Shown here: one piece after another, positions 25,037 through 64,000 of the stretch | Layout: each line of letters opens with the position of its first letter | Position numbering within the stretch: position 1 is the first letter of the stretch | DNA from: an uncultured Alphaproteobacteria bacterium | GTDB lineage: Bacteria; Pseudomonadota; Alphaproteobacteria; ATCC43930; CGMCC-115725 | Assembly (NCBI GenBank): GCA_963807985.1 | Contig: CAWEEA010000007.1 | Location: forward strand, 178,120-242,119 | DNA: 64,000 nt | Direction: 5' to 3' | Translations under genes and position numbers: made by a program | The notes under the pieces: model-generated | What the model was told of the DNA's origin: nothing | The model's database searches: none | What the model saw: only the letters and a program-made list of their open reading frames with translations

Positions 25037-25161
25037 TGGCGCAGTCCCCCCGGGCGAGCCCCGGCACTCTATCACTTTATTTAGCCACAGCGCCGAGCAA
25101 CCCGCATGCGCGAACTTTCTTTGATCTCCTTCCCGTGCGAAAGCGACCCAAGGCTAGGAGG

Positions 25162-35203: not shown

Positions 35204-35750
35204 CTAGAGCATGTTCCGTTTAGATTGAGGCGTATCCGGCGTCGGCGAGATATTGGGAGCACTCGTCCCCCGGGAAGTCGTCCAAGAGGCGGCCGATTGC
35301 TGCCCATAAGGACGCAATGGTTCGCTCGGCGGCCTGACGCAGCAGCGCCTTCAGCTTGGCGAAGAGCATCTCGATCGAGTTGAGGTCGGGCGAATAGGGC
35401 GGCAGGTAGAGCAGGATGGCGCCGGCCGGCTCGATCGCATCGCGGACCCGGGCGACTTTATGAGCCGGCAGATTGTCTATGATGAAGAGGTCGCCGGGCA
35501 CCAGGGTGGGGACCAGGCACCCGCCTTCGCAGGGGCAGGCGTCGGTGCGGAAGATGTGCCCGGTCATGGCGCGGTCGATGACAAAGGGCGCGGTCACCGC
35601 ATCGACGCGCAGACCCGCTACAAACGTGGTTGTTTTCCACTGTCTGTGCGGTACCCGCCCGATCAAGCGGGCACCGCGTCGGCAGCGCCCGCGCCAGCGA
35701 GCCATGTTGGTCGCTGTGCCAGTCCCGTCGGGAAACACCAGACGGCGTGG
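35204..35750 (-). mobile_element. IS630-family transposase remnant (C-terminal DDE half only)
   Basis: ORF 35220..35738 carries [14 protein letters not shown]...[12 protein letters not shown]...[24 protein letters not shown] (DDE_3 motifs). The N-terminal HTH half is missing and the fragment abuts the LysR stop. The left element end is only estimated. Confidence 0.7.
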
Positions 35751-44026: not shown

Positions 44027-44234
44027 ACCATGAGGGTGCCTGCTATGCCGAAACATCGAGAGCGAGCGGATTACACGTGATTCGATAATTACGAAAAATC
44101 TATCGATCGAAGAGAGAATTTTTAGAAACAATGCGTCCGCGACGCGATATAAGTGCTCTCCATTAGGGTAAACGACCGCTTAGCGTCCTCTTCGCCGCCC
44201 TCTGCGGGGCGCCCTTGCCCGGAAAGGAAACAGC

Positions 44235-45191: not shown

Positions 45192-45250
45192 CCGCGAGCG
45201 TCGGAGCTCGCGGCCTTTGACAAAGGCGGCCTCGCTGGCCAAATCTGGGT

Positions 45251-45676
45251 TGCCAGACGGCCGGACGGCCGCTCTCCGCCGCCGTGCGGGGAGAGGAAAG
45301 TCCGGGCTCCACGGAGGTACGGTGCCGGGTAACGCCCGGCGGGGGCGACCCCAGGGAAAGTGCCACAGAAAGTATACCGCCGAGCCCGCCCGCGGCATCC
45401 CTCGGGCGGGCGGCAAGGGTGAAACGGTGCGGTAAGAGCGCACCGCGCCGCCGGCAACGGCGGCGGCAGGGAAAACCCCACCGGGAGCAAGACCAAGTAG
45501 GAGCGGCAGGCATCAGGGAGCGATCCCGAGGTGCCGGGCGGACCTTTGCGCCGCCGCTCGGGTCGGTCGCACGAGGCGTCCGGTAACGGGCGTCCCAGAG
45601 GAATGGCCGTCACCGTCCCGCAAGCCCATCGGGCGGACTGGGGCGGTACAGAACCCGGCTTACGCGCCGTCTGGCA
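45251..45676 (+). ncRNA. rnpB: RNase P RNA, bacterial type A
   Basis: Conserved blocks GAGGAAAGTCCGGGCTCCA, GGTGCCGGGTAACGCCCGG, GAAAGTGCCACAGAAA, GGTGAAACGGTGCGGTAAGAGCGCACC and ACAGAACCCGGCTTA. P1 pairs TGCCAGACGGC (45251-) with GCCGTCTGGCA (-45676). Confidence 0.9.
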
Positions 45677-45917
45677 TCGCCCGGCCCCGTACAGCTCATC
45701 GGGCAGTAGTTTGTGGCGTGGACGATGTGCCGGACCAAACGGGGATAACTGCGCTTTTTTGGGGAAAACCCTGTGGATCGCCGATTGCCCCGTTGCCGCC
45801 CGCCTTCATCCGCCTAAGCTTGCCCGCGTGTGGTTGCGCCGCTGATGCCTAAGGTTGCGGCGGGGAGCCTGCGGGCGATGTTGCCGAGCCCGCGCGCCAC
45901 ACTTGGGGGGACGGGGC

Positions 45918-45948
45918 GGGCGACCTCCGGAGGTCGCCCGTTTCTCTT
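45918..45948 (+). terminator. candidate rho-independent terminator
   Basis: Perfect 22-nt palindrome GGGCGACCTCCGGAGGTCGCCC followed by GTTTCTCTT. No annotated gene ends directly upstream (rnpB ends at 45676). Confidence 0.5.
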
Positions 45949-46068
45949 GAGCGCCATCTCGAACTCGGTGCCGAGCCGCCGCCCAACAGCCCCGGCTCTG
46001 GCGCCGCAGATATTTTCCTCTGGTCAATATCACCATATTTATGGCATTCTTTTGCCATAGTTTCGATA

Positions 46069-46305
46069 ATGGCGGTTGCGATGGCGAGAGATGTAAATCC
46101 GTTGAAATCAGAGCTGATCACCTTGTCGCTTAACGTCCAGACCGTGTGGTACCTCGACCGCCTGGTCGAGACCGGTCTCTTTGGCAACAACCGCACCGAG
46201 GCGGCGCGGGTCGCCCTTTACGACCATTGTAAATTACTCGTTGCCGAACGGAAGCTGGAGATGGCCCCGCGCCTGCCGAGCAAACTGGTCGCCATGACCG
46301 AGTAG
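46069..46305 (+). CDS. small ribbon-helix-helix (CopG-like) protein; candidate regulator
   Basis: 78-aa ORF. ELITLSLNVQTVWYLDRLVETGLFGNNRTEAARVALYDH fits a strand-helix-helix pattern. No good SD, and ATG at 46081 is an alternative start. Confidence 0.45.
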   Translation: MAVAMARDVNPLKSELITLSLNVQTVWYLDRLVETGLFGNNRTEAARVALYDHCKLLVAERKLEMAPRLPSKLVAMTE

Positions 46306-46699
46306 TCTGGCCATGCCGTTCTGTATCCACGAAGCAAAAGTCCAGCCGGCGATCCCATTGCCACGTCGCCGACGGGTCGGACCGGCCACGGCACTCGGAC
46401 GTAGGCCGCCGGTCAGCAGCGTCCCCAACGCCGGTCCAAGCATAACCGGTTGTCTCACCACTGGAATGTCAGCGCGCTCGCCGGCGATGCGATGCCCTGC
46501 CCCCGCGTCAACCGCCTTACCCGCGTCGTGTCCGGACGTGGCCTATCCGAAATTTCTGACATATCGGTCGCGGCGGCCTGGCTTGCCTCTGAGACAGTCA
46601 TTCCGCCGCTTGTGTCCGGGACGCCTACGGCGACTACATAAGGTGGCCAAGCCATCTCGCATGCAATCCCTACAAAATCAAGAGTTTTATTTCACAAAG

Positions 46700-46744
46700 C
46701 CATTGACGACCATGAAGTACCATGCTATCCCATGTTCACCCATG
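46700..46744 (+). promoter_or_regulatory. five CCAT(G/T) repeats at exact 10-bp phasing overlapping a TTGACG -35-like hexamer; candidate MraZ operator / dcw promoter
   Basis: CCATT at 46700, then CCATG at 46710, 46720, 46730 and 46740. TTGACG at 46703-46708. Lies 92-136 bp upstream of the mraZ ATG. Confidence 0.55.
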
Positions 46745-46835
46745 GACGGATGTAGCCGATGGGGGGAACTTCGGCGGCATCTATCGGGCGCCCCTTGCCG
46801 AGCGTCCAAGGGCGAGCGTTGGGGGAAGAAGTGGC

Positions 46836-47304
46836 ATGTTTCTGTCCACTTACGTGAACAAGGTCGACCGCAAGGGGCGAGTTTCAGTGCCGGCGACCTT
46901 TCGCGCCTCATTGGCGGCCCAGCGTTTTCCGGGCATCGTCGCATTTCCGTCGTACAAATATCCGGCGATCGACGCCAATGGCATCGAGCGAATGGAGGAG
47001 CTGGCCGCCCGGCTCGAGACTCTCGAGGAATTTTCCGACGAGCACGAGAATCTGGCGGCGCTGCTGTTCGCCCCCTCGCAGCGGCTCCCCTTCGACACTG
47101 AGGGACGGGTGGTGTTGCCGGCGGACCTAGCCGCAGCATGCCTTTATTACCGACAGCGCAGCCTTTGTCGGTCTAGGCAAGAGTTTTCAGATCTGGGAAC
47201 CCGGCCGTTTCGCCGAACATCTGGCGAATCTGCGCGAGCGCGCCCGCCGGCAAGGGACCAAGATCCCGCCGCTCGGCGGTATGCCAGACCGGCGCCGGGA
47301 ATGA
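46836..47304 (+). pseudogene. mraZ: transcriptional regulator MraZ with 1 frame switch as assembled
   Basis: [23 protein letters not shown]...[16 protein letters not shown], then after TTT at 47143-47145, [26 protein letters not shown]... The stop overlaps the rsmH ATG (ATGA 47301-47304). Confidence 0.9.
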
Positions 47305-48356
47305 CCAGAAGCCGCCCACTGCCGCCGCGGCGCGAACACCGCGCCGGTCGAGACGAGAGTGAGGCGATTGGAGGGGCGGAGCATGTGCCAGTGCTGGTCG
47401 AGGCTGTCATCGATGTACTGTCGCCGCGCGACGACGCCCTCTATGTCGACGGCACATTTGGCGCCGGCGGTTATAGCCGGGGCGCTGCTCGCCGCAGCTG
47501 ATTGCCGTGTCGTCGCGATCGATCGTGATCCCGATGCGGTGCGGCGCGGCCGCGAGCTGGCGCGCGTCCCATGGCGGGCGGCTCGCCATCATCGAAGGGA
47601 ATTTCGGCGATATGGAGCGGCTGCTGGCGTCGCCGGGGTCGATGACGCCCGCGCCGATCGCCGGGATCGCGCTCGATCTCGGCGTCTCCTCTATCCAGCT
47701 CGACACTGCCGAACGCGGGTTTTCGTTCCGCTTCGATGGACCCCTCGACATGCGCATGAGCGGGGCGGGGCAGACCGCCGCCGATTTCGTCGCTACTCTC
47801 GCCGAGAGCGATCTCGCTCGCCTGATCCGCGAATTCGGCGAAGAGCGCTTTGCTCGCCGAATCGCCCGCGCGATCACCGCGGCCCGGCGGCTCCAGCCGA
47901 TCGGCCGTACCCTCGAACTCGCCCAGATCGTGCGCACCGCGGTGCCCAAGCCCGCGCCCGGGATTGACGCGGCGACGCGCACGTTCCAGGCACTGCGGAT
48001 CGCCGTCAACGACGAGCTCGGCGAACTCGATCGCGCGCTCGGCGCGGCCGAACGGCTGCTGATGCCGGGCGGACGGCTCGCCGTCGTGTCGTTTCATTCG
48101 CTCGAAGATCGGCGGGTCAAGGACTTCCTGCGGCAGCGCAGCGATAGCGGCACCTCGCGCCTCGCGCCACGAGCCGGTTCCCGCCACGGTTGCAGCGCCG
48201 AGCTTCCGGCTGCTGCATCGCCGGGCGCTCAAACCTGACATCGAGGAAATCGACCGCAACCCGCGTGCACGGGCGGCGCGGCTGCGCGCGGCGGAACGCA
48301 CCGCCGCCCCACCCTGGCCGCCGAGTCGCGACCGACAACAGCGGCACGCCGCATGA
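47301..48356 (+). pseudogene. rsmH: 16S rRNA (cytosine1402-N4)-methyltransferase RsmH with 3 frame switches as assembled
   Basis: [13 protein letters not shown]...[10 protein letters not shown] | [20 protein letters not shown] | [11 protein letters not shown]...[10 protein letters not shown]...[11 protein letters not shown] | [29 protein letters not shown]. Switches are near 47470, 47565 and 48185. The stop overlaps the ftsL ATG. Confidence 0.9.
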
Positions 48357-48724
48357 TCAAGCTCTCCGCACTGTTCTGGTTGCTATTGGTCTCGGCGACG
48401 GGCTTCGCAATGTTCGCGATCAAGTACGAGGTCCAGGCCGTCGCCGACCAGCTGGCCCAAACAACCAAACGGGCGGACGACGCCGAGCGCGACATCCGCG
48501 TCTTCGACGCAGAATGGGCTTATCTGAACCGGCCCGACGCGCTGGCCCAGATGAACCAACGCTATCTGTCTCTGGCGCCGATCGCGACGAAGCAACTGAT
48601 CGCCAATATAGCCGAGATTCCGATGCGACCGGCGCCGCCGCCGCGCGGCCGAGACAGCGGCTGCCGTCGCCGAAAACTCACACCCGCAGAACGTATCGCC
48701 CGCGGCATCCCCTCCTGCTTGTAG
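48353..48724 (+). CDS. ftsL: cell division protein FtsL (alphaproteobacterial type); C-terminal end uncertain
   Basis: [36 protein letters not shown]... gives a single TM helix followed by a coiled coil, in the canonical slot between rsmH and ftsI. The tail after ~residue 95 may be affected by an unresolved frame change. Confidence 0.7.
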
Positions 48725-48934
48725 AACAGCCGGCCGAAAGCACCAAGCCGCCGGCAGAAAAGCGGGGCCCCCGTCCTGACCGTCGCACTCGAAACCCGAA
48801 ATGCGACACCCGAGCCGGCGAGACCGGTGCCAACCAAGGCGACACCGCACCCGAACTCGGCAAACCGGGCCAAATCGCTCGATGAATTGATCGCGCAGAT
48901 CGCGGAGAACCGGTGATGAGCGCGGTCCACCAGT

Positions 48935-50692
48935 TTGACGACAATCCGTGCCGGCCGCGCCATTTCAAGCCGCCGCACTGCGCCCCGGTCGTTCCGGACG
49001 GTCCGGCAAGGCGAGCGCTCGACGGCTGCCGCGCCCGGCTCCTCGTCGCGACTGTCGTCATTCATCATGGTCTTTGCGGTCATCGCCGGGCGGCTCGTCC
49101 AGGTTACATTGCTGCCGGGCGCCGTCACCGTACCCTCTATTGCTCGCTTCCATCCGCCGCCGCCGCCCCGCCTGGCCGCGCCGACATTATCGACCGCGAA
49201 CGGCAAGCTGTTGGCGACGACACTGGACAGTCCCTCGCTTTACGCCAATCCGCGGCAGATCGTCGATGCCGCCGACGCGACGCGCAAACTCCTCGCCGCA
49301 CTGCCGGGTCTCGACCGCGCTCAACTCTTGGCCAAGCTGAACTCGGGCAAGGGTTTCGTATGGGTCAAGCGCCATCTGACCCCAGACCAGGAATATGCAG
49401 TCAACCAGCTCGGGATACCGGGGCTGCAATTCGAGCATGAGGAGCGCCGCGTCTACCCCTATGGCAATCTCCTGTCGCATGCGGTCGGCTATACCGGGAT
49501 CGACGACAACGGTCAGGCCGGGATCGAGCGCGGCCTCGACGATCAATTGCGCGGGCGCCAGGAGCCGCTGCAGCTGTCGATCGACCTGCGTCTGCAATAT
49601 ATCCTGCACGAAGAACTGCAGCGCGTGGTCGACGATTTCACCGCCAAGGGCGGCGACGGGCTGATCATGAACGTCAACACCGGCGAGGTCCTGGCGATGG
49701 TGTCCTTGCCGGATTTCGATCCGAGCCATCCCGGCACGCTCGATCCCAACCATCCGAACATTCCGGTGGCCGAGCGGATGTTCGACCGGGTCACGCTCGG
49801 CGATTACGAGATCGGCTCGGTGTTCAAGATCTTCACCACGGCGATGGGGCTCGATTCGGGCGCCACCACGATGACCGGGGTCTTCGACGCGACCCATCCG
49901 ATCCACATCGGGCGGTTCACGATCTCCGACTATCACGGCAAGCATCGCCCGCTGACCGTTCCCGAAATCCTGATGTATTCGTCGAATATCGGCGAGGCCA
50001 AGATCGCGCTTGCGGTCGGCGCCGATCGGCAGCAGGAATATCTGCGCCGATTCGGGCTGTTGACCTCGCCGAGTTTCGAGCTGAAGGAGATCGGCCGGCC
50101 GCACTTATCCGGCGAAGTGGCGCGAGGTCAACGTCATGACGATCGGCTTTGGCCACGGCATTTCCGAGACCCCGTTGCAGATCGCCAGCGCGAGCCTCGG
50201 CGCTGGTCAATGGCGGCGTGCTGCGCCCGGCGACCCTGCTCAAACTGCCGCCCGGCGATGCGCCGCAAGGCCGCCAGGTGATTTCGCGCGGAAACCTCGG
50301 AGCACATGCGCAAGTTGTTGCGCATGGTCGTCCTCTACGGGACCGGCGAAATGGTGGACGCGCCGGGCTATGTCGTCGGCGGCAAGACCGGCACCGCCGA
50401 CAAAGTCGAGGGCAAGCATTATGCCGAGCAGAAGTTGCTCTCGAGCTTTGTCGGCGTCTTCCCGATGACCGCGCCTAAATATCTGGTCCTGGTGATGGTC
50501 GACGAGCCGCATGGCACCAAGGCGAGCCACGGCTTCGCGACCGCCGGCTGGACCGCAGCCCCGGCGGTCGGCCGCACCATCGTGCGCATCGCGCCATTGC
50601 TCGGCGTGCAGCCAGTCGATGAATCCTCGCCGGCGATCGCGCAAGCGCTGACGCCCGAGAGCATGCAAGGCAAGCGGATTGAAGCTTACTGA
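48935..50692 (+). pseudogene. ftsI: peptidoglycan D,D-transpeptidase FtsI (PBP3) with at least 5 frame switches as assembled
   Basis: TM helix FIMVFAVIAGRLV. RADIIDR | NGKLLATTL is split near 49199. SxxK as IGSVFKIF. PAKWREVNVMTIGFGHGIS | ALVNGGVLRPATLL | MRKLLRMVV...GGKTGTADK. Switches are near 49100-49170, 49199, 50100, 50200 and 50295. The N-terminal start is uncertain. Confidence 0.85.
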
Positions 50693-52185
50693 GCTGATCG
50701 ACATCGCCGAATGCCCAGCCTGGCCCGGCCTCGCGAGGCGATCCGGAAATTGCCGGGATCACCGCCAATTCGCGCGCGGTACTTCCCGGCTTCCTGTTTG
50801 CTGCGCTGCCCGGCACGCGGCTCGACGGGCAGGTTATTCGCTGCCGATGCGGCGGCGCGCGGCGCGGTTGCGATCCTGACCGACGATGCTGCGGCGCTCG
50901 GCCTCGCGGCGGAAGACCGCGCGCGGGTCGCGATCGTCGCCGACCCGAACCCGCATCGCCGGCTGGCGCTGCTGGCGGCGCGCTTTTACGGCCGGCAGCC
51001 GCGAACCATCGCCGCCGTCACCGGGCACCAACGGCAAGACCTCGGTCGCCCATTTCATCCGTGAGATCTGGACCGCCGCCGGCCATCTCGCGGCGAGCCT
51101 CGGCACGCTCGGGTTGGTGACGTCCGTCCGGGCGCCGCCCGGGCGCGCTGACGACGCCCGACCCGGTCGCCCTCCATCGCGATCTCGCCGCGCTTTGCGC
51201 ACAAGGGATCGAGCATGTCGCGGTCGAGGCGTCGAGCCACGGTCTCGCCCAGTTTCGCCTCGACGGCCTGTCGGTCGCCGCTGCCGCCTTTACCAATTTG
51301 ACCCGCGATCATCTCGACTATCACCGCGACATGGCGCAATACCGCGCCGCCAAGGAACGGCTGTTTACCGCGCTGCTGGCGATCGGGGCAGCCGGCGGTG
51401 CTGAACCGTGACAGCGCCGAATTTCCGCGACTGGCGGCGCTGTGCCGCGACCGCGGCCATCCGGTTATCGGCTATGGCGGCGACCCAGCTGCCGAATTGC
51501 GGCTCGTCGCGGCGCGGCCGGGGACAGCGGCCAGCGCCTGGTCCTCGAGATCTTTGGGCGGCGCCACGAATTCTTGCTGCCGCTGCTCGGCGAGTTCCAG
51601 GCGATGAACGCGCTCTGCGCACTCGGTCTGGCGATTGCGACCGGTGTCCCGGCGGCGGCGGCGACTGCGGCGCTCGCACAGCTCACCGGGGTTCCGGCCG
51701 GCTCGAATTCGTCGCCGAGGCCAGCGGCGGGGGCCCGATCGTCGTCGATTACGCCCACACTCCCGATGCGCTTGCGACCGTGCTCGCGGCGCTGCGCCCG
51801 CATGCGCCGGGCCGGCTCGTGGCCGTTTTCGGCTGCGGCGGCGACCGCGATCCGGGCAAGCGGCCGCTGATGGGGCGCGTCGCAGCGGACGCCGCCGACC
51901 GGGTTTACGTGACCGACGACAATCCGCGCAGCGAAGATCCCGGCCGCGATCCGCCGCGCGATCCTTGCCGCCGCCCCAGGGGCGATCGAGATCGGCGACC
52001 GGCGCCGCGCGATCGAGACCGCGATCGCCGAACTCGGCACCCGGCGACCTGCTGGTCATCGCCGGCAAGGGCCACGAAACCGGCCAGATCATCGGCGGAC
52101 GAGACATTGCCGTTCGACGATGCTGAAATCGCCCGCGAAATCGCCGGCACGCTGCGGCCGAGCGTGCCGGCGGGCCAGCGGATGA
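50679..52185 (+). pseudogene. murE: UDP-N-acetylmuramoyl-L-alanyl-D-glutamate--2,6-diaminopimelate ligase MurE with ~11 frame switches as assembled
   Basis: The TTG start overlaps the ftsI end. Segments: MKLTELIDIAE | DPEIAGITANSR..LPGFLFAALPGTRLDG | RLFAADAAARGAVAIL...IAAVTG | TNGKTSVAHFIREIW | [14 protein letters not shown]...EASSHGL...[12 protein letters not shown] | LNRDSAEF... | [15 protein letters not shown]... | GRLEFV...[11 protein letters not shown]...FGCGGDRD...DDNPRSEDP | AAIRRAIL... | [12 protein letters not shown] | [11 protein letters not shown]. Confidence 0.85.
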
Positions 52186-53595
52186 CGCCGCTGTGGACCG
52201 CGGCCGACGCTGCGCGCGCGACTGGCGGGGCGGGCGCCGCCGATTGGGCGGCGACGGGTGTTTCGATCGATACCCGCACGCTGGCGGCGGGCGACCTCTT
52301 CGTCGCGCTGCGCGGCCCCAACCATGACGGCCACGATTTTGTCGCGGCGGCGTTCGAACGCGGCGCCGCCGCGGCGATGGTCGATCGCGACAGGTCGTCG
52401 GGCTGCCGCCGGGGGCGCCGCTGCTGCGGGTCGGCGACACGCTCGCCGGTCTCGGCGCGCTCGGCCGATTTGCCCGCGCCCGCAGCAGCGCGCGGATCAT
52501 CGCGGTGACCGGCAGCGTCGGCAAAACCGGGACCAAGGAGGCGCTGCGCTTGGCGCTCGGCGCCTGCGGCAGCGACTTTCGCCTCCGCCGGCAGCCTCAA
52601 CAATCACTGGGGGGTGCCGCTGTCGCTGGCCCGCATGCCGCCCGATGCGGCTTATGGCGTGTTCGAGCTCGGCATGAACCATCCCGGCGAGATCGCCGCA
52701 CTGACCCGCCTGGTGCGGCCCCACATCGCGGTGATCACGACCGTCGAGCCGGCGCATCTCGGTTTTTTCGGCTCGGTCGAGGCGATCGCCGACGCCAAGG
52801 CCGAGATCTTTCTCGGGCTCGAACCGGGCGGGAGTCGCCGTCCTCAACCGCGACAATCCGCATTATCCGCGCCTTGCCGCATGGGCTGAGCGCGCGGGGG
52901 TGGATCGAAGTGATCAGCTTCGGCGCCGATCCCGAGGCCACAGTCCGGCTCGTCGATTGCTGTGCTGGAGCCTGACGGCAGCACGATCGCGGCAAGATGT
53001 TGGGGCGTTCCCGTGCGCTTCCGTTTGCCCGTCCCCGGCCGGCACTGGGTCATGAACGCGCTCGCCGTGCTGGGCGCAACGATGGCGGCCGGCTGCGATG
53101 TCCGATTTGCGGCCGAAGGCGCTCTTGGGCCTCGAAGCGATGCCGGGCCGAGGCCGCCGCCATCGGCTGGCTTGGCGGGGCGGGATCTTGACCCTGATCG
53201 ACGAGAGCTACAATGCGAGCCCGGCGGCGATGGAGGCCGCCATTGCGGTGCTCGCCGCGACTTTGCCAGCGGCCGGCGGCCGGCGGGTGGCGGTGCTGGG
53301 CGACATGCTCGAGCTCGGCGATGCGACCGAGCGTTTCCATCGCAATCTGGCAGCACCTCTTGCCGCGGCCGGGGTCGATCGCGTGTTCCTGGTCGGCAAA
53401 GCGATGGCGGCGCTGCACGAGGTCCTGCCCGCGGCCAGCCGGGGCGGATTGTGGCCGTCTGCCGATCAGGCTATCCCTGCGCTGTTAAGCTTTCTTCAGT
53501 CCGGCGACGTCGTGACGGTCAAAGGCTCCTACGGCGTGCATGTCGGCCGCATCGTCGAGCGGCTGATCGCCGAATCGGCGCGACGCGAGACCTGA
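52182..53595 (+). pseudogene. murF: UDP-N-acetylmuramoyl-tripeptide--D-alanyl-D-alanine ligase MurF with 6 frame switches as assembled
   Basis: [16 protein letters not shown]...[26 protein letters not shown] | [17 protein letters not shown]...[15 protein letters not shown] | TFASAGSLNNHWGVPLSL...ELGMNHPGEI | VAVLNRDNPHY | EVISFGADPEA | LEPDGSTI...GRHWVMNAL | ...LIDESYNASPAAM...GDMLELGD... Confidence 0.85.
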
Positions 53596-53599
53596 TCTG

Positions 53600-54690
53600 A
53601 TGCTTTATCGGCTGCTCTACCCGCTCGCGGACCAGTTCCAGGCTTTCAACCTGTTCCGCTACATCACCTTTCGCTCGGGCGGAGCGGTCGTCACCGCGCT
53701 GTTGATCAGCTTTCGTCTTTGGCCGGCCGATCATCGCCTGGCTGCGCTCAAAGCAGACCAACGGTCAGCCGATCCGCCTCGACGGCCCCGCCGGGCATCT
53801 GGTCCGCAAAAAGGGAACGCCGACGATGGGCGGCTTCCTGATCCTGCTGGCGCTGACGGTCGCGACCTTGCTGTGGGCGGATTTGACCAACCCCTATGTC
53901 TGGATCGTGCTGCTGGTCACCGTCGGGTTCGGGCTGATCGGCTTTTTTGACGACTATAAAAAGCTGACCAGCAATTCGCATCGCGGGCTGTCCGGGTCGA
54001 CCAAGATCGTGCTCGAAATCGGGGTCGGCGTGCTCGCCTGGCATCGCGCTCGGCTATGTGACCCCGGCGCCGCTGGCGAACACGCTCGCCGTGCCGTTTT
54101 TCAAAAACGTGCTGATCCCTCTCGACGGGCTGTTCGTGCCGTTCGGCGTCCTCGTCATCATCGGCGCGTCGAACGCGGTCAACCTGACCGACGGGCTCGA
54201 CGGGCTCGCGATCGTGCCGGCGATGATCGCCGCCGGCTGCTTCGCGCTGATCGCCTATTTCGTCGGCAATGCGGTCTTCGCCAACTACCTGCAGATCCAC
54301 CATGTTCCGGGGGCCGGCGAGCTGACCGTGTTTTGCGGCGCCATGGTCGGCGCCAGCCTCGGTTTTCTGTGGTTCAACGCTCCGCCGGCGATGGTCTTCA
54401 TGGGCGACACCGGGTCGCTGTCGATCGGCGGCGCGCTCGGGACGATCAGCGTCGTCACCAAGCACGAGCTGGTGCTCGCGATCATCGGCGGGCTCTTCGT
54501 GCTCGAGGCGGTGTCGGTCATCGTCCAGGTCGCCAGCTTCAAGATCACCGGGCGGCGCGTCTTCCGGATGGCGCCGCTGCACCATCACTTCGAGCAAAAG
54601 GGCTGGGAGGAGCCGACGATCGTCATCCGCTTTTGGATCATCGCCTCGATCCTGGCGATCGCCGGGCTCGCCACCTTGAAGCTGCGGTGA
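53600..54690 (+). pseudogene. mraY: phospho-N-acetylmuramoyl-pentapeptide-transferase MraY with 2 frame switches as assembled
   Basis: MLYRLLYPLADQFQAFNLFRYITFRSGGA...LLISF | [14 protein letters not shown]...GTPTMGG...DDYKKL... | GIALGYV...[13 protein letters not shown]...FMGDTGSL...HHHFE. Switches are at TTT 53711-53713 and near 54040. Confidence 0.9.
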
Positions 54691-54824
54691 TGCGCGATGA
54701 CCGATGGGGGGATCGCACAAATAGTAGCTAGATGCGGCCACAGCCGCTATATATCCTCTCTCGACGAGGGTCGGGGGGCTGGGTCCGGTGGCGAGCCTTG
54801 CCCGAACGGCGAGGATCGATCCCG

Positions 54825-55945
54825 ATGAGGTTCGCCCGCATCGATCAGAGCCCGGTGGCGCGCTGGTGGTGGACCGTCGATCGATGGAGCCTCGCCGCGC
54901 TCTGCGTCCTGATGGGTTTCGGCGTGCGTCATGAGCCTGGCGGCGAGCCCGGCGGTCGCCGAGCGAATCGGCTATGACGGCATGCATTTCGTCCGCCGTT
55001 ATCTCGCCCTCCTGCCGGTTACGATCGGCGTGATGTGGCTGGTCTCGCTGCAAACGCCGCGGACGGTCCGCCGCATCGCCTTTATCGTCTTCGGCATCGG
55101 ACTCGTGCTGCTGGCGCTGACTTTTGTCGTCGGCGCCGAGATCAAGGGGGCGCGCCGATGGATCAATCTGCCGTTGCTGTCGTTGCAGCCCTCCGAATTT
55201 GTCAAGCCCGTGCTTTGCCGTCGTCGCCGCCTGGCTGTTCTCCGAGCAAAAGCTGCGCCGGGGCTTTCCGGGCAACCTGATCTCTGCGGCATTGTTGCTG
55301 CTGATCGTCGGGATGCTGATCGCGCAGCCCGATATCGGCATGGCGGCGGTGGTGGCGACAGTATGGTTCGGACAATTTTACATGGCCGGTCTGCGGCTCT
55401 ATTGGGTCGTGTTGTTCGGCCTCGGCGGGATTGGTGCGCTGGCCGGCGCCTATACTTGCTTGCCGCATGTCAGGGTTCGGGTCGATCATTTCCTCGATCC
55501 GGCAGCCGGCGACAGCTATCAGGTCAACCGCTCGCTCGAAGCATTCGCCAATGGTGGATTGTGGGGGCGCGGCCCGGGCGAGGGCACGATCAAATATGTG
55601 CTGCCCGACGCGCACGCCGATTTCGTGTTCGCCGTTGCCGGCGAGGAATTGGGGCTGATCGTCTGCCTTGTCGTCGTCGGGCTGTTTGCCTTTGTCGTGC
55701 TGCGCGGGTTTTCGCGGCTGCGCCAGGAGGGCAGCCTGTTCGTGCTGCTGTCGGCGACCGGCCTGTTGATCCAATTCGGGCTTCAGGCGGTCATCAACAT
55801 GGCCTCGACCTTGCACATGATGCCGACCAAGGGGATGACCTTGCCGTTTTTGTCTTATGGCGGCTCCTCGATGCTCGCGCTCGGGTTGGGGATGGGGATG
55901 CTGCTGGCGCTGACCCGCCGCCGGCTAGCGGGAAGCGCTCTGTGA
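54825..55945 (+). pseudogene. ftsW: peptidoglycan glycosyltransferase / cell division protein FtsW with 2 frame switches as assembled
   Basis: MRFARIDQSPVARWWWTVDRWSLAAL | MSLAASPAVAER...LQPSEFVKPV | FAVVAAWLF...PDAHADFVFAV...PTKGMTLPFLSYGGSS. Switches are near 54928 and 55212. Confidence 0.9.
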
Positions 55946-57058
55946 GCACGCGCTGTTGCTCTCGCCGCAGGCGGCACCGGCGGGCACTTGTTCCCGGCCG
56001 AGGCGCGTGGCAGCCGAACTGGTCGAACGCGGCCGGCAGGTGCATCTGCTGACCGATTCGCGAGCCGATGCCTTTGCCCGGGCGTTCCCGGCGTCGCGAT
56101 CCACAGCGTGCGTGCCGGAAGGCTCGGCGGCGGGCCGGTTCGCGCCGCCTACGGCCTGGCCGAGCTGGCGGCCGGTGCCGTTCAGGCACGCCGGCTGCTG
56201 CGCCGGCTGTCGCCGCAGGCGGTCATCGGCTTTGGCGGCTATCCGTCGGTGCCGACGATGCTGGCGGCGGCGTCGCTTGGACTGGCGACCCTGATCCACG
56301 AGCAGAATGCGGTCCTCGGCCGCGCCAACCGGCTGCTGGCGCCCCGGGTGCGGCGGATCGCCACCGGTTTCCCGAGACCGCCGGGATGCGCCCGGCCGAC
56401 CGAGCCCGCGCCGTCCATACCGGGAACCCGGTCCGGCAGGCGATCCTCGCCATCGGCGAGCCCGGCTATGAGCCGCCAGTGCCGGGCGGGACAGATCGAG
56501 CTGTTGATCCTCGGCGGCAGCCAAGGCGCTCATGTTCTGAGCGAGATCGTGCCGCCGGCCCTGGCGGCGTTGCCGCCGGGCATGCGCGCCGCGCTCAGGG
56601 TCAGCCAGCAGGCGCGCCCCGAGGATCTCGCCGCGGTTGCCGAAGCCTACGCCGAAACCGGCATCGCCGCAGAGATCGAAAGCTTTTTCGCCGATGTGCC
56701 GCAGCGGCTGGCGCGCGCGCATCTGGCGATCTGCCGGGCCGGCGCCTCGACCGTGGCCGAGCTCTCCGCTATCGGCCGGCCGGCATTGCTGATCCCTTAC
56801 CCGCACGCGACCGACGACCACCAGACCGCCAACGCCCAGGCTTTCGCCGCAGCCGGCGGCGGATGGGTCGTCGCGCAGGCGGATCTGCGCCCCGATACCC
56901 TCGCCGCTCGGCTGCAGGATCTGCTCGGTGACGGCGCTTCGCTGACTCGAGCGGCGCAGCGCGCGCAGGGCTTCGGCCGGCGCGATGCGGCCCGCCGTCT
57001 GGCGCTGCTGGCGCTGGCGCTTGAACCCGGCGACGCGTTCGAGGGGTATGCGGCATGA
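55942..57058 (+). pseudogene. murG: UDP-N-acetylglucosamine--N-acetylmuramyl-(pentapeptide) pyrophosphoryl-undecaprenol GlcNAc transferase MurG with 5 frame switches as assembled
   Basis: The GTG start overlaps the ftsW stop (GTGA). VSTR | AVALAAGGTGGHLFPAEA | AAELVERGRQVHLLTD | GVAIHSVRAG...GFGGYPSVP...HEQNAVLGRANR | ETAGMRPADRARAVHTGNPVR | QIELLILGGSQGA...ICRAGASTVAEL... Confidence 0.9.
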
Positions 57059-58481
57059 GGGCGTTGCCGCTGACCATCGGGCCGTTGCATTTTGTCGGCA
57101 TCGGCGGCATCGGCATGAGCGGCATCGCCGAGGTTCTGCACAATCTCGGCTATCGCGTGCAGGGCAGCGACCTCGCCGACGGCGCCAATGTCCGCCGCCT
57201 GGTCGAGCTCGGCATCCCGGTCGCGGTCGGGCACGACGCGGCCAATCTCGGCGCCGCCGAGGTCGTCGTGATCTCCTCGGCGGTCGCGCCCGACAACCCC
57301 GAAATCGCTCGCGGCCCGCGCGCGACGGCTGCCGGTCGTGCGGCGCGCCGAAATGCTGGGCGAGTTGATGCGGCTCAAATGGTCGCTGGCGGTCGCCGGC
57401 ACCCACGGCAAGACGACGACGACCTCGATGATCGGCGCTCTGCTCGAAACCGCCCAGCTTGATCCGACCGTGATCAATGGCGGCATCATCAACGCCTATG
57501 GCACCAATACCCGGCTCGGCGCCGGCGACTGGATGGTGGTCGAGGCCGACGAGAGCGACGGCACCTTCACCCGGCTGCCGGCGACAGGTCGCGATCGTCA
57601 CCAATATCGATCCCGAGCATCTCGATTTTTACGGCGGCTTCGACGCGCTGCGTCAGGCGTTCGAGACCTTTGTCGGCAACATTCCGTTCTACGGCTTCGC
57701 CGCGCTGTGCATCGATCACCCGGTCGTGCAGGGGATGATCCCCAAATTGTCGGATCGCCGCGTGCTGACCTACGGGATGAGCCCGCAGGCCGACATCCGC
57801 GCGGTCGATCTGCGGCTCGGGCGCGACGGGGCGCGCTACGACATCGTCGTTTCGGATAGCGTGACGGAGCGCGGACGGACGGTTCCGGACCTGTATCTGC
57901 CGATGTTCGGCCGGCACAACGTGCAGAATTCGCTGGCCGCGGCGGCGGTCGCCGAGGCGCTCGGGCTCGGCGACGACGCGCTGCGCGCGGCATTGCGCAA
58001 TTTTAAAGGGGTCAAGCGTCGCTTTACCAAGACCGGCGAATGGAACGGGGTGACGGTGATCGACGATTACGGCCACCATCCGGTCGAGATCGCGGCGGTA
58101 TTGAAGGCGGCGCGCGCGATCGTCTCGGGCAAGGTCATCGCGGTCGTGCAGCCGCACCGCTACAGCCGCGTGTCGCATCTGTTCGACGGGTTCTGCACCT
58201 GCTTCAACGATGCCGACATCGTTCTCGTCGCCGACATTTATGCCGCCGGCGAGGCGCCGATCGAGGGCGTAACAAGGGACGCGATCGTCGCCGGGCTGAT
58301 CGAGCACGGACATCGCAACGTGCGCGCGCTCGCCGACCCTGGCGATCTCGCGCCGCTGGTCGCCGAGCTGGCGCGGCCCGGCGACATGGTGGTGTGCCTC
58401 GGCGCCGGCTCGATCACCGCTTGGGCCAACAGCCTGCCCGGCGAACTCGCCGCCCTGGAAAATCGCGAGCGAAGCGGATGA
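57055..58481 (+). pseudogene. murC: UDP-N-acetylmuramate--L-alanine ligase MurC with 2 frame switches as assembled
   Basis: [17 protein letters not shown]... | [30 protein letters not shown]...EADESDGTF | [15 protein letters not shown]...DDYGHHP... Switches are near 57310 and 57585. ATGA overlaps at both ends. Confidence 0.9.
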
Positions 58482-59434
58482 TCGCGCTGCACGCGGAAGC
58501 TATATGCCCCGCCGATTGCGGCGCTTGGCCACGTGCGCGGCCGGCTGATCACGAATGCGCCGATCGGCCAAGCAGACCTGGTTCGGCGTCGGCGGACCGG
58601 CGGAAATACTGTTCCGGCCCGCCGATCGCGAGGACCTCGCCGCCTTCCTCGCGGCGTTGCCGCCGGAAGTTCCGGTAACGGTGATCGGCGGCGGCGCCAA
58701 TATACTGATCCGCGACGGCGGGCTTCCCGGCGTCACGATCCGCCTCGGCCGCGGTTTTGCCGGCAGTCGCCATCGACGGAAGCGAGGTCGTGGCCGGTGC
58801 CGGGGCGCTTCACCTCAACGTCGCGCTGGCTGCTGCCAAGGCCGGGATCGCCGGGCTTGAATTCCTCTCCGGAATCCCGGGGACGATCGGCGGCGGGTTG
58901 CGGATGAATGCCGGCGCCTATGGCCGCGAGATCAAGGATGTGCTGGTTTCGGCAACGGCGCTCGACCGCAGCGGCGCTTCCCACCTGATTGCGGTCGAGG
59001 CGATGGGGTTTTCCTATCGCCATTGCGGGGTCGACCCCGACTGGATTTTCGTCGAGGCGCGGCTGCGCGGCACCCACGGCGATCCGGCTACGATCGTGCG
59101 GCGGATGGCCGAGATCAGGCAGTCGCGCGAGGCGACTCAGCCGATCCGCACCCGCACCGGCGGCTCGACCTTCAAGAACCCGCCGGGCGACACGGCCTGG
59201 CGCCTGATCGACCTTGCCGGCTGCCGCGGTCTCGTGCGCGGCGGGGCGATGGTATCGCCGCAGCACGCGAATTTTCTGATCAACACCGGCGACGCCACCG
59301 CCGCCGATCTCGAAGGGCTCGGCGAGGAAGTGCGGCGCCGGGTCTACGAGGCGACCGGGGTCGTGCTCGAATGGGAAATCCGCCGGATCGGCCGCCCGCT
59401 TTCCGGGGTCGAGCCAATCGCTGAGGGGTGCTGA
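58478..59434 (+). pseudogene. murB: UDP-N-acetylenolpyruvoylglucosamine reductase MurB with 3 frame switches as assembled
   Basis: MIALHAEA... | [11 protein letters not shown] | [17 protein letters not shown]...[14 protein letters not shown] | [11 protein letters not shown]...[18 protein letters not shown]...GGSTFKNP. Switches are near 58500-58530, 58572 and 58760. Confidence 0.9.
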
Positions 59435-59438
59435 AGCG

Positions 59439-60358
59439 GTGACCAAAACCGTCGCATTGCTGATGGGCGGCTGGTCGCCCGAGCGCGAGGTGTCGCTGTC
59501 GAGCGGGCGGGAATGCGCCAAGGCGCTCGTCGACCACGGCTATCGGGTCAAGGCTGTCGATGTCGGCCGCGACCTGCCGGCATTGCTGCGCGCCCTCGAG
59601 CCGCGCCCCGAGGTGATCTTCAACGCCTTGCACGGCATCGGCGGCGAAGACGGCACGATCCAGGCCGTCTTCGAGATGCTGCGCATCCCCTACACCCATT
59701 CGGGCGTTCTCGCCTCGGCGCTGGCAATGCACAAGCCGACCGCAAAGATGGTCTTTCGTGCCGCCGGGCTGCCGGTCGTCGAGGGTGTCGTCGCCAGCCC
59801 CGAGGAACTCGCCGGCACGATCCGATGCCGGCGCCCTTTGTCGTCAAGCCGACCAATCAGGGATCGAGCGTCGGCGTGCGCATCGTCCGGATCGGCGACA
59901 ATTCCTGGCGCGAGGAGGTCGCGGGCTGGCGCTTCGGCGACGAAATCATGGTCGAGCGCTTTATTCCCGGGCGCGAGCTGACCGTCGCGGTGATGGGCGA
60001 TCGCGCGCTCGGGGTCTGCGAAATCGTCCCGCGCGGCAGCTTTTACGACTACACCGCAAAATATGCGCAAGGCGGCTCCGATCACCTGGTGCCGGCCCCG
60101 ATCCCCGTCCGGATCTACGAGGAGGCGCTCGACATCGCACTTCGCGCGCACTGGGCGCTCGGCTGCCGCGGCGTCAGCCGCGCCGATCTGCGCTACGACG
60201 ACACGCCGGAGGGCGACGGCCGGCTTTATCTGCTGGAGGTCAACACCCAGCCGGGCATGACCCCGACTTCGCTGGTTCCCGACATTGCCCGGCATGCCGG
60301 CATCGGCTTTGACGAACTGGTGGTGTGGATCGTGGAGAACGCGGCATGCGAGGGGTAA
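59439..60358 (+). pseudogene. ddl: D-alanine--D-alanine ligase with 1 frame switch as assembled
   Basis: [19 protein letters not shown]...[12 protein letters not shown]... | [15 protein letters not shown]...YDYTAKY...[10 protein letters not shown]. The switch is near 59815. Confidence 0.9.
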
Positions 60359-61204
60359 GGGCGGCGGTGCCGATGCGGCGTCGCCGCGCTGGCTGGACCG
60401 GGCGGCTGCGCCGCCTCGCCTGGTGGATCGGCGTTCCCGCTTTTCTCGCCGTCGCCGTTTACGGCACCGCGCTGTTCGGCCGATCCCCGCTCGGCCAGTC
60501 CGTCCTCCACGGCGCCTCGAGCCGTTTGCTCAGCGCCAGCGCGGCGATTGGCTTTCGGGTCGCCGACATCCGCGTCGAGGGGCGCGAAACCACCGATCGC
60601 GAGACGATCCTCGAATGCGCTCGGCGCTCGGCCCGGCACCCCGATCCTGGCGGTCGATCCGGTCCGCGCCAAGCAGCAGCTCGAAAGTCTGCCATGGGTC
60701 CGCTCCGCGCTGATCGAGCGTCGGCTTCCCGATACGCTCTACGTCCGCCTTGTCGAGCGCGAGCCGATGGCCTTGTGGCAGCACGGCGGCAAGATCGAGT
60801 TGATCGACCGCACCGGCGCGGTAATCCCGGTCACCCGTCTCGACCGGTTCGCCAAATTGCCGCTGGTCGTCGGTGAAGACGCGGCGAGCCACGCGAGCGA
60901 ACTGCTGGCGATGCTGGCGAGCGAACCCGACCTCGCCGCGCGCGTCACCGCGGCGGTGCAGGTCGGCGGCCGACGCTGGAATTTGCGCATCGACAATTCG
61001 ATCGACGTTCTGCTCCCTGCGGACGACCCAGCGGCGGCGTGGGCCGATCTCGCCCGCCTCCAACGATCGAGCGCTATTCTAAAGCGCGACGTTCAGGCCA
61101 TCGACATGCGTTTGCCCGATCGGCTCGTCGTGCGTGTCGTCCCAGAGCCGCCAAAGGAAGCCCCGCCAGCCAAGAAAGGACGCCCGCCGGCGAAGAATAC
61201 ATGA
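60346..61204 (+). pseudogene. ftsQ: cell division protein FtsQ with 1 frame switch as assembled
   Basis: TM helix WWIGVPAFLAVAVYGTALF, then FRVADIRVEGRETTDRETIL | GTPILAVDPVRAKQQLESLPWVRSALIERRLPDTLYVRLVEREP (POTRA). The switch is near 60615. The stop overlaps the ftsA ATG. Confidence 0.85.
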
Positions 61205-62562
61205 CCGCGATCGACGAGGTGTTGATGCGCGCGAGCGACCCGAAGGAGACCGCGACAACCGCAAAGCGCGGAAAGGGCGAAAAGACCAAATCGCGCCGGG
61301 CGCCGCGACCGCCCAAGCCGCCGCATCGGCCGCGCGGCAGCCTGATCGCGGCGCTCGATATCGGCACGACCAAGGTGTGCTGCTTTATCGCCCGGGTCGA
61401 GCCCGAGAAGCCGCAGGTCATCGGCATCGGCCATCAAATCTCGCGCGGCCTGCGCAACGGGGCGATCGTCGATCTCGAAGCGGCCGGCGCCTCGGTCGCC
61501 AACGCGGTGCACGCCGCCGAGGAGATGGCCGGGGAAACGATCCAGCAGGTCGTGGCCAATTTGTCGGGCGGTTTCTCGGCTTCGCGCATCATCAAGGCCG
61601 AGATCGGCGTCGCCGGGCGCGAGGTCGGCGAGGCCGAATTGCAGCGCGTGCTCGATCAAGGCTATCTGCTGCGCGAGCCCGGCGACCGCCAGATCATCCA
61701 TTCGGTGCCGGTCGGGTTCTCGATCGACGACAGCCGCGGCATCCGCGACCCGCGCGGCATGTATGGCGAGCGGCTCGGCGTCAACATGAACGTCGTGACG
61801 GCTGGCGCCGCCGGGGTGCGCAACCACAGCGCGGCGATCGGGCGCTCGCATCTCGACGTCGAGGCGTTGGTCGTCAGCCCTTACGCCGCCGGGCTCTCCT
61901 GCCTTGTCGAGGACGAAATCGGGCTCGGCGTGACGGTCATCGACATGGGCGGCGGAACGACGACGATCGGCGTGTTTTTCGACGGCAATCTGATCTTTGC
62001 CGATTCGGTGCCGGTCGGCGGCTGCCACGTCACCAACGACATCGCCCGCGGGCTGTCGACCCCGGTCGCTCATGCCGAGCGGATGAAAACGCTGTTCGGC
62101 ACCGCCATTTCCGCCAGCACCGACGAGCGCGAGATGATCGCCGTGCCGCAGATCGGCGAGGAGGAGGAAGGGCACGTCAACCATGTGCCGAAATCCCTGC
62201 TCGTCGGCATCATCGCGCCGCGCATCGAGGAGACCTTCGAGCTGGTGCGCAACCGGCTCGAAGCGAGCGGGTTCGACAAGGTCGCCGGCCGGCGCGTGGT
62301 GCTGACCGGCGGGGCCTGTCAACTGCATGGCGCGCGCGAATTCGCCGGCCTGATCCTCGACAAGCAGGTCCGCATCGGGCGCCCGCTGCGGGTTGCCGGC
62401 CTCGCCGAGGCGACTGCTGGTCCGGCCTTCTCGGCCGCCGTCGGTCTGCTCCATTTCGCGATGTCGGAGCGCGCCGAGACGCCGCACGCCGGGCGCGCGC
62501 CGGCCGGGCCGCCGAGCGGGATTCTCGGCCGACTGGGTCACTGGCTGAAGGAGAACATCTGA
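61201..62562 (+). CDS. ftsA: cell division protein FtsA (intact)
   Basis: Within ORF 61039..62562, with the ATG at 61201 overlapping the ftsQ stop (ATGA). ALDIGTTKVCCFIA, VIDMGGGTTTIGVF, VLTGGACQLHG (actin-fold phosphate motifs). No frame break found. Confidence 0.9.
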   Translation: MTAIDEVLMRASDPKETATTAKRGKGEKTKSRRAPRPPKPPHRPRGSLIAALDIGTTKVCCFIARVEPEKPQVIGIGHQISRGLRNGAIVDLEAAGASVANAVHAAEEMAGETIQQVVANLSGGFSASRIIKAEIGVAGREVGEAELQRVLDQGYLLREPGDRQIIHSVPVGFSIDDSRGIRDPRGMYGERLGVNMNVVTAGAAGVRNHSAAIGRSHLDVEALVVSPYAAGLSCLVEDEIGLGVTVIDMGGGTTTIGVFFDGNLIFADSVPVGGCHVTNDIARGLSTPVAHAERMKTLFGTAISASTDEREMIAVPQIGEEEEGHVNHVPKSLLVGIIAPRIEETFELVRNRLEASGFDKVAGRRVVLTGGACQLHGAREFAGLILDKQVRIGRPLRVAGLAEATAGPAFSAAVGLLHFAMSERAETPHAGRAPAGPPSGILGRLGHWLKENI

Positions 62563-62693
62563 GGCAAATTGTCGTTTTGATGCCGGCGCGGCTATCGGTA
62601 CCGGATAAAACCGGCTAAATCGATGTCGGCCAAAAGAGGGGGAAGCCCGGATCCGTCCGGGCATGATCGAGGCTGCGCAGCAGTGGAGGACAT

Positions 62694-64000
62694 ATGATCA
62701 ATCTGAGCATCCCGAGGGACGAGCAGGAGATGAAGCCCCGCATCACCGTTGTCGGGGTGGGCGGCGCCGGGGGAAACGCCGTCAACAACATGATCCGCTC
62801 GAATTTGGTCGGGTGTGAGTTCGTCGTCTGCAATACCGATGCGCAGGCGATGCAGCAATCGACCGCCCACCGCAAGATCCAGCTGGGGATCGGCGTCACC
62901 CGCGGGCTCGGCGCCGGGTCGCGGCCCGATGTCGGGCGCGCCGCCGCCGAGGAGGCGCTCGACGAAATTCTCGAAGCGATGCAGGGCTCGAACATGGTGT
63001 TCATCACCGCCGGCATGGGCGGCGGCACCGGCACCGGCGGCGCGCCGGTCATCGCCCGCATCGCCCGCGAAATCGGGAATTCTGACGATCGGCGTCGTGA
63101 CCAAGCCCTTTCATTTCGAGGGCAGTCACCGCATGCAGATCGCCGAAGCCGGGATCGAGGAACTGCAGAAATTCGTCGACACTTTGATCATCATCCCGAA
63201 CCAAAATCTGTTCCGTGTCGCCAATGAGCGCACGACCTTTGCCGACGCCTTCAAGATGGCGGACGACGTCTTGCATTCGGGCGTGCGCGGCGTCACCGAC
63301 CTGATGGTGATGCCGGGGCTGATCAATCTCGATTTCGCCGATATCCGCACGGTGATGAGCGAGATGGGCAAGGCGATGATGGGCACCGGCGAGGCCGAAG
63401 GCGACCGCCGGTCGATCGACGCCGCCGAGGCTGCGATCTCGAACCCGCTGCTCGAGGACGTGTCGATGAAGGGCGCCAAGGGCGTCCTGATCAACATCAC
63501 CGGCGGCCCCGACATGACCTTGTTCGAGGTCGATGAAGCCGCCAATCGCATCCGCGAGGAGGTCGATCCCGAAGCCAACATCATCTTCGGCTCGACCTTT
63601 GACGAAACCTTGTCAGGCAAGATGCGGATCTCGGTCGTCGCTACCGGCATCGACGCCGAGGCGCTGACCCAGGCGCGGCCGGCGATCAGCCTGGTCAGCA
63701 GCCGGGAGACGGTGCCGGCGCTCGCGCGAAGCGACCTCCGGGGGCTATACCCAGCCGGTGCTGACCCAGAACGCGGCGCAGCCGCCGCTCGAAGCAGGAC
63801 GAGACGCCGCCCGCGCCGAGCATGACAGCGAGCCGGTGCCGCAGGCGGCGGCAGCGGCCGAAAGCGTCGCGATGCGCGGCGGCGCCTTCATCGCCCCCAA
63901 GCCGGTCGATGCCGGTCCCGCCCGTCCGGTGCCGCTGACCCAGCCGGCGGTTCCGGTAACGCCGCCGATGCGCGATGCCGCGCCAAAACCGAAAGGGCGG
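62694..64000 (+). pseudogene. ftsZ: cell division protein FtsZ, partial at the right edge, with 2 frame switches as assembled
   Basis: [49 protein letters not shown] | [15 protein letters not shown]...NLDFADI... | [12 protein letters not shown]...AFIAPKPVDAG... remains open to position 64000. Switches are at AA 63079-63080 and near 63700-63750. Confidence 0.9.

Follow-up and report, generated by a model that had tools for sequence, protein, structure and literature searches.

The order mraY-murD-ftsW within the cluster of division and cell wall genes (dcw cluster) is among the most conserved bacterial gene orders, and this conservation is often explained by co-translational assembly and by the balanced expression of Mur and division proteins. 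Neighboring genes can be translationally coupled through stop/start overlaps of the ATGA or TGATG type, as in the trpE-trpD and trpB-trpA pairs of Escherichia coli. A route that uses MurD2 (an L-Glu ligase) together with MurL (an epimerase) is known from Xanthomonas, which is not known to have murD in its dcw slot. Here, we analyze a 64,000-nt stretch of contig CAWEEA010000007.1 from an uncultured alphaproteobacterium, referred to below as the window, in which mraY is followed directly by ftsW. The spacer between these two genes is a remnant of murD, and we consider it probable that the reading frame of this remnant has been kept open for the sake of translational coupling, or of protection from polarity, onto ftsW.

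A murD-less junction shared by a clade

In the window, mraY ends with the TGA at 54688-54690 and ftsW starts with the ATG at 54825 (MRFARIDQSPVARWW), which is also the conserved start in 19/19 relatives. An earlier sequence-only reading of this DNA had placed the end of mraY at 54690 and the start of ftsW at 54825, with a gap of 134 bp, and we read the same coordinates from the sequence. Its statement that the window holds no MurD was borne out as well: tblastn with three alphaproteobacterial MurD proteins (from Stella, Azospirillum and strain BAL199) matched nothing in the 64 kb beyond two paralogues, MurC at 57.3-58.2 kb and MurE at 51.2 kb. Instead of a protein of ∼450 amino acids with the Mur ligase central and C-terminal domains (PF08245 and PF02875), the slot holds only an open reading frame (ORF) of 43 codons, here called the ghost ORF. 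Both spacer ORFs described before (13 and 43 codons) are present, as are both coupling junctions, and the lower GC content in the middle of the spacer is real but modest (0.475 at 54720-54759 versus 0.65-0.75 on either side). The 13-codon ORF opens at the ATG (54690-54692) that overlaps the mraY stop in TGATG (54688-54692). This overlap is not conserved, the closely related locus L001 reading TAGTG, in contrast to the ATG at 54697, which is the conserved start.

The junction is not peculiar to this genome. We scanned species representatives, one genome per species of the Genome Taxonomy Database, with the MraY C terminus as query. Of the 80 loci returned, 71 had murD after mraY and 7 did not, while 2 contigs were too short to tell. 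In the murD-less loci (7/78 informative ones; L001-L005, L008 and L009), ftsW follows mraY after 119-187 nt. A metagenome scan yielded 12 further contigs with mraY directly joined to ftsW (L086-L092, L094, L097, L099, L103 and L104), and murD was kept in its slot in ∼60 metagenome contigs; overall, the sister group and ∼130 other alphaproteobacterial loci have it there. No MurD was found by tblastn in the slot of any of the seven species representatives or the 12 metagenome contigs; these 19 relatives and the window make up the 20 sequences considered below. L001 is colinear with window positions 44003-63999 at 91.6% nucleotide identity, with no indel in the spacer. The 19 assemblies stem from different samples and technologies, including long-read metagenome-assembled genomes (MAGs) and short-read JGI contigs. 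Since independent assemblies of one clade share the junction, the assembly collapse that the sequence-only reading had entertained is excluded.

Six murD-less loci (L001-L005 and L009) passed the coverage filter for a neighbor-joining tree of MraY, FtsW, MurG and MurC. In it, they were monophyletic and fell among MAGs whose NCBI records carry the label Stellaceae; protein identity served to place L008 and the metagenome contigs. Their sister is a group around L031 (L006, L015, L031, L084, L085 and several JGI contigs) with murD in the slot. From the shared junction, and from the state of the mur genes in L001, L003 and L004 described below, the loss of murD from the slot is of old date and has become fixed, in a clade in which peptidoglycan precursors are still made. 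The earlier reading had said that relatives also lacking murD here, with murD conserved elsewhere, would indicate a lineage-typical rearrangement, and the first half of this is what the 19 relatives show.

The spacer has its origin in murD. Sister-group murD opens with an ATG placed 6 nt past the mraY stop and closes with a TGA that overlaps the ftsW start as ATGA; at its 5' and 3' ends, the clade junction aligns with these mraY/murD and murD/ftsW junctions, respectively. The motif GCGAGGA, kept in 12/18 aligned spacers, aligns with GCGAGGG or CCGAGGG at the 3' end of the sister murD. Clade spacers range from 42 to 223 nt and the remnants in them from 13 to 66 codons. The longest spacer (223 nt, L091) matches sister murD at nucleotides ∼967-1020 (E = 9e-5) and ∼1125-1216 (E = 5e-18; 84.5% identity to L096). 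At the protein level, it reads QRLVDKIDRIRYIS, a match to MurD residues 325-338, and FFGRLRYSLPNCSATEESAATPDG, a match to residues 372-395 (the range being also given to 401). Another spacer (L089) carries 38 residues matching MurD 302-337, and that of L005 reads HAIEEFPASFDYKPRATR, matching residues 384-404, so that the pieces retained in some lineages span MurD residues about 302-404. We are highly confident that the murD-less junction is real, clade-wide and occupied by a spacer of murD origin.

Because different lineages keep different pieces of murD, erosion continued after the clade had begun to diversify, rather than being completed in one clean deletion. The clean deletion private to this genome that had been suggested earlier is therefore not what happened; of the ∼1.3-1.4 kb proposed for it, a loss of about 1.25 kb stands as the origin of the spacer, not as a single event. 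We also rejected a single clean in-frame deletion in which "IAQIV" would be the N terminus of MurD: the conserved block in question corresponds to the internal MurD sequence LVDTIDGVRYI, and other lineages keep other internal pieces. As a separate observation, a 71-nt remnant in L091 (L091:3324-3394) is 84.5% identical to the L096 murD, compared with 79.5% for the flanking mraY and 73.7% for ftsW of the same contigs; this reflects either chance in a short stretch or an extra constraint.

Table 1. Features of the mraY-ftsW junction and of its surroundings (window coordinates unless a locus is given)
Feature	Position	Strand	Description
mraY	53600-54690	+	tblastn with MraY of L082 and L001: residues 1-362, in three pieces and three frames
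mraY-ftsW spacer, eroded murD remnant	54691-54824	+	134 nt, colinear with L001, indel-free
Start codon at murD position	54697-54699	+	6 nt past the mraY stop, layout as in the sister group
Ghost ORF, 43 codons	54697-54828	+	Old murD frame, from the murD-position start to the TGA at 54826-54828 inside the ftsW ATGA
Block TAGTAG-N19-CTATAT	54722-54752	+	From murD codons LVDTIDGVRYI (MurD residues ∼326-337), AT-richer spacer center
Shine-Dalgarno sequence GAGGA	54811-54815	+	9 nt upstream of the ftsW ATG, inherited from the murD 3' end
ATGA	54825-54828	+	ftsW start overlapping the ghost-ORF TGA, the former murD stop
ftsW	54825-55945	+	tblastn: residues 1-369, in three pieces
Rest of dcw cluster	46890-64000	+	Canonical order minus murD, runs off the window end
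REP-like insertions	L008:10706-10859, L009:10706-10892, L099:2662-2863, L103:3137-3281		In the spacer; frame kept, no stop added

The open frame of the remnant

All recognizable murD pieces share one frame, the one that ends in the TGA of ATGA. Stop codons were counted in the window and in 18 relatives, 19 sequences in all, without L104, whose spacer is nearly identical to that of L103. The ∼1000 codons of this relic frame contain 0 internal stops, whereas stops number 44 and 34 in the remaining two. A strict count gives 7 stops in 1002 relic-frame codons, none of which is internal: four of these are in L002, L097, L103 and L104, at most 17 nt away from the ftsW start, one lies 8 nt past the mraY stop in L091, and the two in L086 are artefacts of a 1-nt deletion, the true relic frame of L086 having none. 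The frame is kept at spacer lengths of 42, 119, 128, 134, 141, 145, 154, 160, 161, 163, 168, 169, 187, 202 and 223 nt, and the length differences are multiples of 3 in 17/18 distinct relatives. An in-frame ATG or GTG at +3 to +9 after the mraY stop occurs in 16/20 sequences (15/19 relatives and the window). ATGA or TTGA at the ftsW start is found in 20/20 and also at the murD/ftsW junctions of the sister group; its TGA is the stop of the ghost ORF in 14/20 sequences, and L002 has TGATG. The robust signal is the stop-free frame and not the exact arrangement of start and stop, to which there are four to five exceptions.

The probability of an open relic frame in dinucleotide shuffles was 0.05-0.4 for most sequences. 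A second, conservative kind of shuffle left the composition at each codon position intact; multiplying the most conservative probability of every group, ten groups in all, then gave 10^-4.1. GC content in the relic is flat over the three codon positions (0.59/0.56/0.62), compared with 0.8-0.9 at third positions (GC3) in real genes of this region, and the open frame is therefore not a leftover of coding composition. Outside two blocks, the spacers are too diverged to align, and neither the peptide nor the codon composition is conserved beyond the murD-derived block and the Shine-Dalgarno region. Since the frame is open while the peptide is unconserved, the constraint would act on translatability and not on the product; from these comparisons, selection quite probably keeps the relic frame open.

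Some mraY-ftsW spacers also contain one or two copies of GC-rich palindromes resembling repetitive extragenic palindromic (REP) elements (CCCTCTCCCGCAATGCGGGAGAGGG and variants). These insertions, 33 and 48 nt long and so both divisible by 3, leave the frame intact in L008, L009 and L099.

We propose the following course of events. In the ancestor of the clade, which consists of uncultured soil alphaproteobacteria, the murD copy in the slot would have become dispensable, presumably when another gene took over the MurD reaction, and several deletions would then have cut it down to the present 42-223 nt. The surviving deletions, and the insertions that came later, would be those that left a start codon just past the mraY stop, the old murD frame, the ftsW ribosome-binding site and the murD stop on the ftsW start. 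Ribosomes leaving mraY could thereby re-initiate on the ghost ORF, read across the spacer and finish at the ftsW start codon, so that ftsW would be translationally coupled to mraY and the mRNA would be covered against Rho-dependent polarity. Coupling or anti-polarity onto ftsW may well be the reason for the open frame, although on this particular point our own judgment is evenly divided.

Several observations weigh against this proposal. In L086, the closest metagenome relative of L001 (MraY 95% identical), a 1-nt deletion (L086:1745-1752) 7 nt before the ftsW ATG makes the ghost ORF read 210 codons into ftsW out of frame, so that nature itself supplies a counter-example to coupling of the strict stop/start kind. 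In L103 and L104, the ghost ORF stops 12 nt before the ftsW ATG, and in L097 it stops 2 nt before it. L087, L091 and L094 have the murD-position start in another frame, and L097 lacks it. Coupling may be dispensable, given that ftsW has its own Shine-Dalgarno sequence. The sequences are related, so the shuffle probabilities overstate their independence. Finally, two MurD queries (L007 and L031) brought up no functional murD of the clade among the matches listed, as described below.

The surrounding cluster, MurD and the alternative explanations

The remaining dcw genes lie on one strand of the window in the order mraZ, rsmH, ftsL, ftsI, murE, murF, mraY and then ftsW, murG, murC, murB, ddl, ftsQ, ftsA, ftsZ. 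Compared with L001, the window carries ∼43 single-base insertions between 47133 and 63724, mostly of random bases and not extensions of homopolymers. No dcw gene from mraZ to ftsZ is left in one piece by them; mraY (near 53710 and 54041) and ftsW (near 54928 and 55212) have two single-base insertions each. Window genes at 5-44 kb are of full length, and the upstream genes match Pfam models end to end. Substitutions relative to L001 at the first, second and third codon positions number 12/3/52 in mraY, 15/6/53 in ftsW, 15/6/77 in murC and 2/7/70 in ftsZ; this third-position bias was present in 11/11 dcw genes tested, none of which had the even spread over codon positions that relaxed selection would produce. 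In L001, murE, murF, mraY, ftsW, murG, murC and murB each align by tblastn as a single intact gene, and L003 and L004 have full-gene-size ORFs at every dcw position. Similarly split genes occur in L084, a related long-read MAG contig. The third-position bias, the random inserted bases and the full-length upstream genes together argue for consensus errors and against gene decay, and the insertions look like errors of a locally poorly supported stretch, for example one covered by few uncorrected long reads.

Other deviations from the canonical cluster were seen in further contigs. In the related MAG contigs L083 (2385-5000 and 10031-11380), L084 and L085, murE is followed by mraY without murF, and murB by ftsQ without ddl. 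This is a second, different variant of dcw gene loss in the family labelled Stellaceae, in which the cluster is thus unusually plastic. A distant metagenome contig (L161:3203-4725; MraY 67% identical) continues for 1.5 kb past mraY without murD or ftsW, the cluster being broken after mraY in this other lineage.

Upstream of the cluster, the window genes include nothing related to peptidoglycan. There is an IS630-family transposase fragment at 35220-35738 (minus strand), and two tandem amidase genes lie at 22473-25075 (minus strand). A 441-amino-acid ORF at 26240-27565 (minus strand) has a good coding composition and no Pfam or NCBIfam match. GC content is lower (0.57) in positions 1-3000, which hold a 594-amino-acid ORF with a weak choice-of-anchor B match.

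The enzyme for the D-glutamate step must be sought outside the slot. The two MurD searches each listed at least 120 matches, ending at 66% and 73% identity. These belonged only to the sister group and to other Stellaceae groups, with canonical slots in 6/6 genomic contexts inspected, and the trees and identity tables of the listed matches contained no early-branching candidate for a clade MurD. Calibration on MurC, MraY and MurG gives an expected identity to the queries of ∼64-70% for a vertically inherited clade MurD, and as this lies below the points at which the lists end, its absence from them is uninformative. The eroded copy left in place argues for a second source of MurD before the decay, and the intact murC, murE, murF, murG, murB, mraY and ddl genes, which are under purifying selection in the relatives, point to relocation. 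A MurD-type enzyme is therefore very probably encoded elsewhere in the genomes of the clade.

The center of the spacer holds one conserved element, the bipartite block listed in Table 1. In the degenerate form T(A/G)GT(A/G)G-N19-CTA(C/T)AT it occurs at fixed spacing in 13/20 clade spacers, a pattern search naming 8 further ones besides the window, and it is also present inside murD (L015:11677, L093:4200, L096:1794, L098:4191 and L106:2435). The sister-group murD codons for LVDTIDGVRYI are unusually AT-rich (GTA GAT ... TAT ATC) compared with those of more distant relatives, which hints at a DNA-level signal that would predate the loss of murD. A scan for sigma-70-type promoters (two hexamers spaced by 16-18 nt, at least 9/12 matches) gave 0 sites in 54300-55100. 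No intrinsic terminator was found after mraY on the plus strand, and one weak site was found on the minus strand. No Rfam family matched at E ≤ 1 in 54500-55000, and the RNA of the spacer is not unusually stable (fold z = -1.24). By scan, manual inspection and folding, the block was no convincing fit to a sigma-70, RpoH-like or Caulobacter-type promoter or to an RNA stem.

The open frame could be an accident, or a legacy of shared ancestry, in a decaying scar without present function, with ftsW translated from its own Shine-Dalgarno sequence. A good GAGGA does lie 9 nt upstream of ftsW, four to five lineages have lost the exact start/stop arrangement without obvious harm, and the phylogenetic relatedness of the sequences means that the shuffle statistics are not independent. 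Nevertheless, we regard such a scar as unlikely, since the spacers have diverged beyond alignment outside the two blocks and still contain 0 internal stops in 19 sequences, compared with 78 in the other frames; nearly all length changes, the palindromes of 33 and 48 nt included, are multiples of 3; and there is no residual coding GC3 to explain the absence of stops. The remnant might also be retained for what it contains, either as a functional small protein encoded by the ghost ORF or as a promoter or regulator site within the block for ftsW-murG-murC. The fixed spacing of the block in 13 of the 20 spacers and the AT-rich codons of the sister group would fit a DNA element, as would CTATAT, which we take to resemble alphaproteobacterial -10 elements. 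This alternative seems quite unlikely to us: the block has no sigma-70-type match and is absent from L009, L099, L103/L104, L094, L092 and L097, the peptide is otherwise unconserved, and a promoter would not explain a frame free of stops.

The remaining alternatives concern the assembly, the cluster and the enzyme itself. That murD merely collapsed out of an error-rich contig is suggested by the stretch from 47.1 to 63.7 kb with its ∼43 erroneous single-base insertions, but is hardly credible given a junction with a homologous spacer in 19 other assemblies and a window spacer that is indel-free relative to L001. If instead the frameshifts were real, the whole dcw cluster would be pseudogenized and the loss of murD part of a loss of the cell wall. 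Every dcw gene of the window is indeed frameshifted while the upstream genes are intact; yet the strong third-position bias relative to L001 (most marked in the murC and ftsZ counts given above), the indels, which are almost all +1 random bases and unlike bacterial mutational spectra, and the full-size dcw ORFs in relatives with the same junction, along with the intact genes of L001, make this highly improbable. A further alternative is that MurD was replaced rather than relocated, by a non-orthologous or divergent route for which MurD2 and MurL are the candidates. An eroded copy left in place implies a second activity before decay, no vertical-looking clade MurD appears among 240 listed Stellaceae MurD proteins, and Devosia, Pelagibacterium and Parvularcula are alphaproteobacteria with MurD2/MurL (PMC8788868). 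Set against this, absence from lists that end at 66% and 73% means nothing when ∼64-70% is expected, and a simple duplication with subsequent loss happens more commonly; replacement thus appears improbable. There was no MurD2 among solved structures. It is equally improbable that the clade has no canonical MurD at all and relies for the D-glutamate step on a route of the MurD2/MurL type or on an enzyme not yet known; if it did, an acquired route would have let the slot murD decay into a ghost ORF that serves coupling only.

Comparison with known systems

The clade offers a natural experiment, in which an essential gene was removed from its slot and its protein discarded, yet start, stop, frame and ribosome-binding site were kept. 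If confirmed, the coupling proposed here would mean that dcw gene order is constrained in part at the level of ribosome traffic and not of the proteins, and it would provide a clean instance in which what is left of a pseudogene has been retained as a translated spacer. On the practical side, annotation pipelines and checks of completeness or essential genes will score murD as missing from the cluster in MAGs of this clade.

Compared with the canonical dcw cluster, the clade has the same gene order, strand and tight junctions and, as in its sister group, ATGA at the ftsW start; it differs in that murD is a remnant (43 codons in the window), fixed in the whole subclade. The cluster is thus a lineage-level variant, canonical in all but the murD slot. 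With the MurD2/MurL systems of a few Alphaproteobacteria it would share a canonical MurD reaction supplied from elsewhere in the genome. Fusions of Mur genes, including MurD-FtsW chimeras, exist in other bacteria (PMC10214165). Such chimeras show how closely the expression of murD and ftsW is tied in many bacteria, whereas the clade studied here loses murD from the pair and keeps an FtsW of normal length (369 amino acids aligned). The stepwise deletions and the different fragments left in each lineage resemble ordinary pseudogene erosion; in contrast to it, the decay spared one frame and the two ends of the gene in nearly every lineage of the clade, which neutral erosion does not do.

We found no report of a murD ghost-ORF remnant kept before ftsW in the literature searched. 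The closest likeness is to coupled gene pairs, in which the upstream ORF stops on the downstream start and contains the Shine-Dalgarno sequence of its neighbor. In the clade, the upstream ORF of this predicted coupling is an unconserved remnant that is seemingly kept only to be translated, and the new element is that the upstream coupling partner is the ghost of a lost essential gene.

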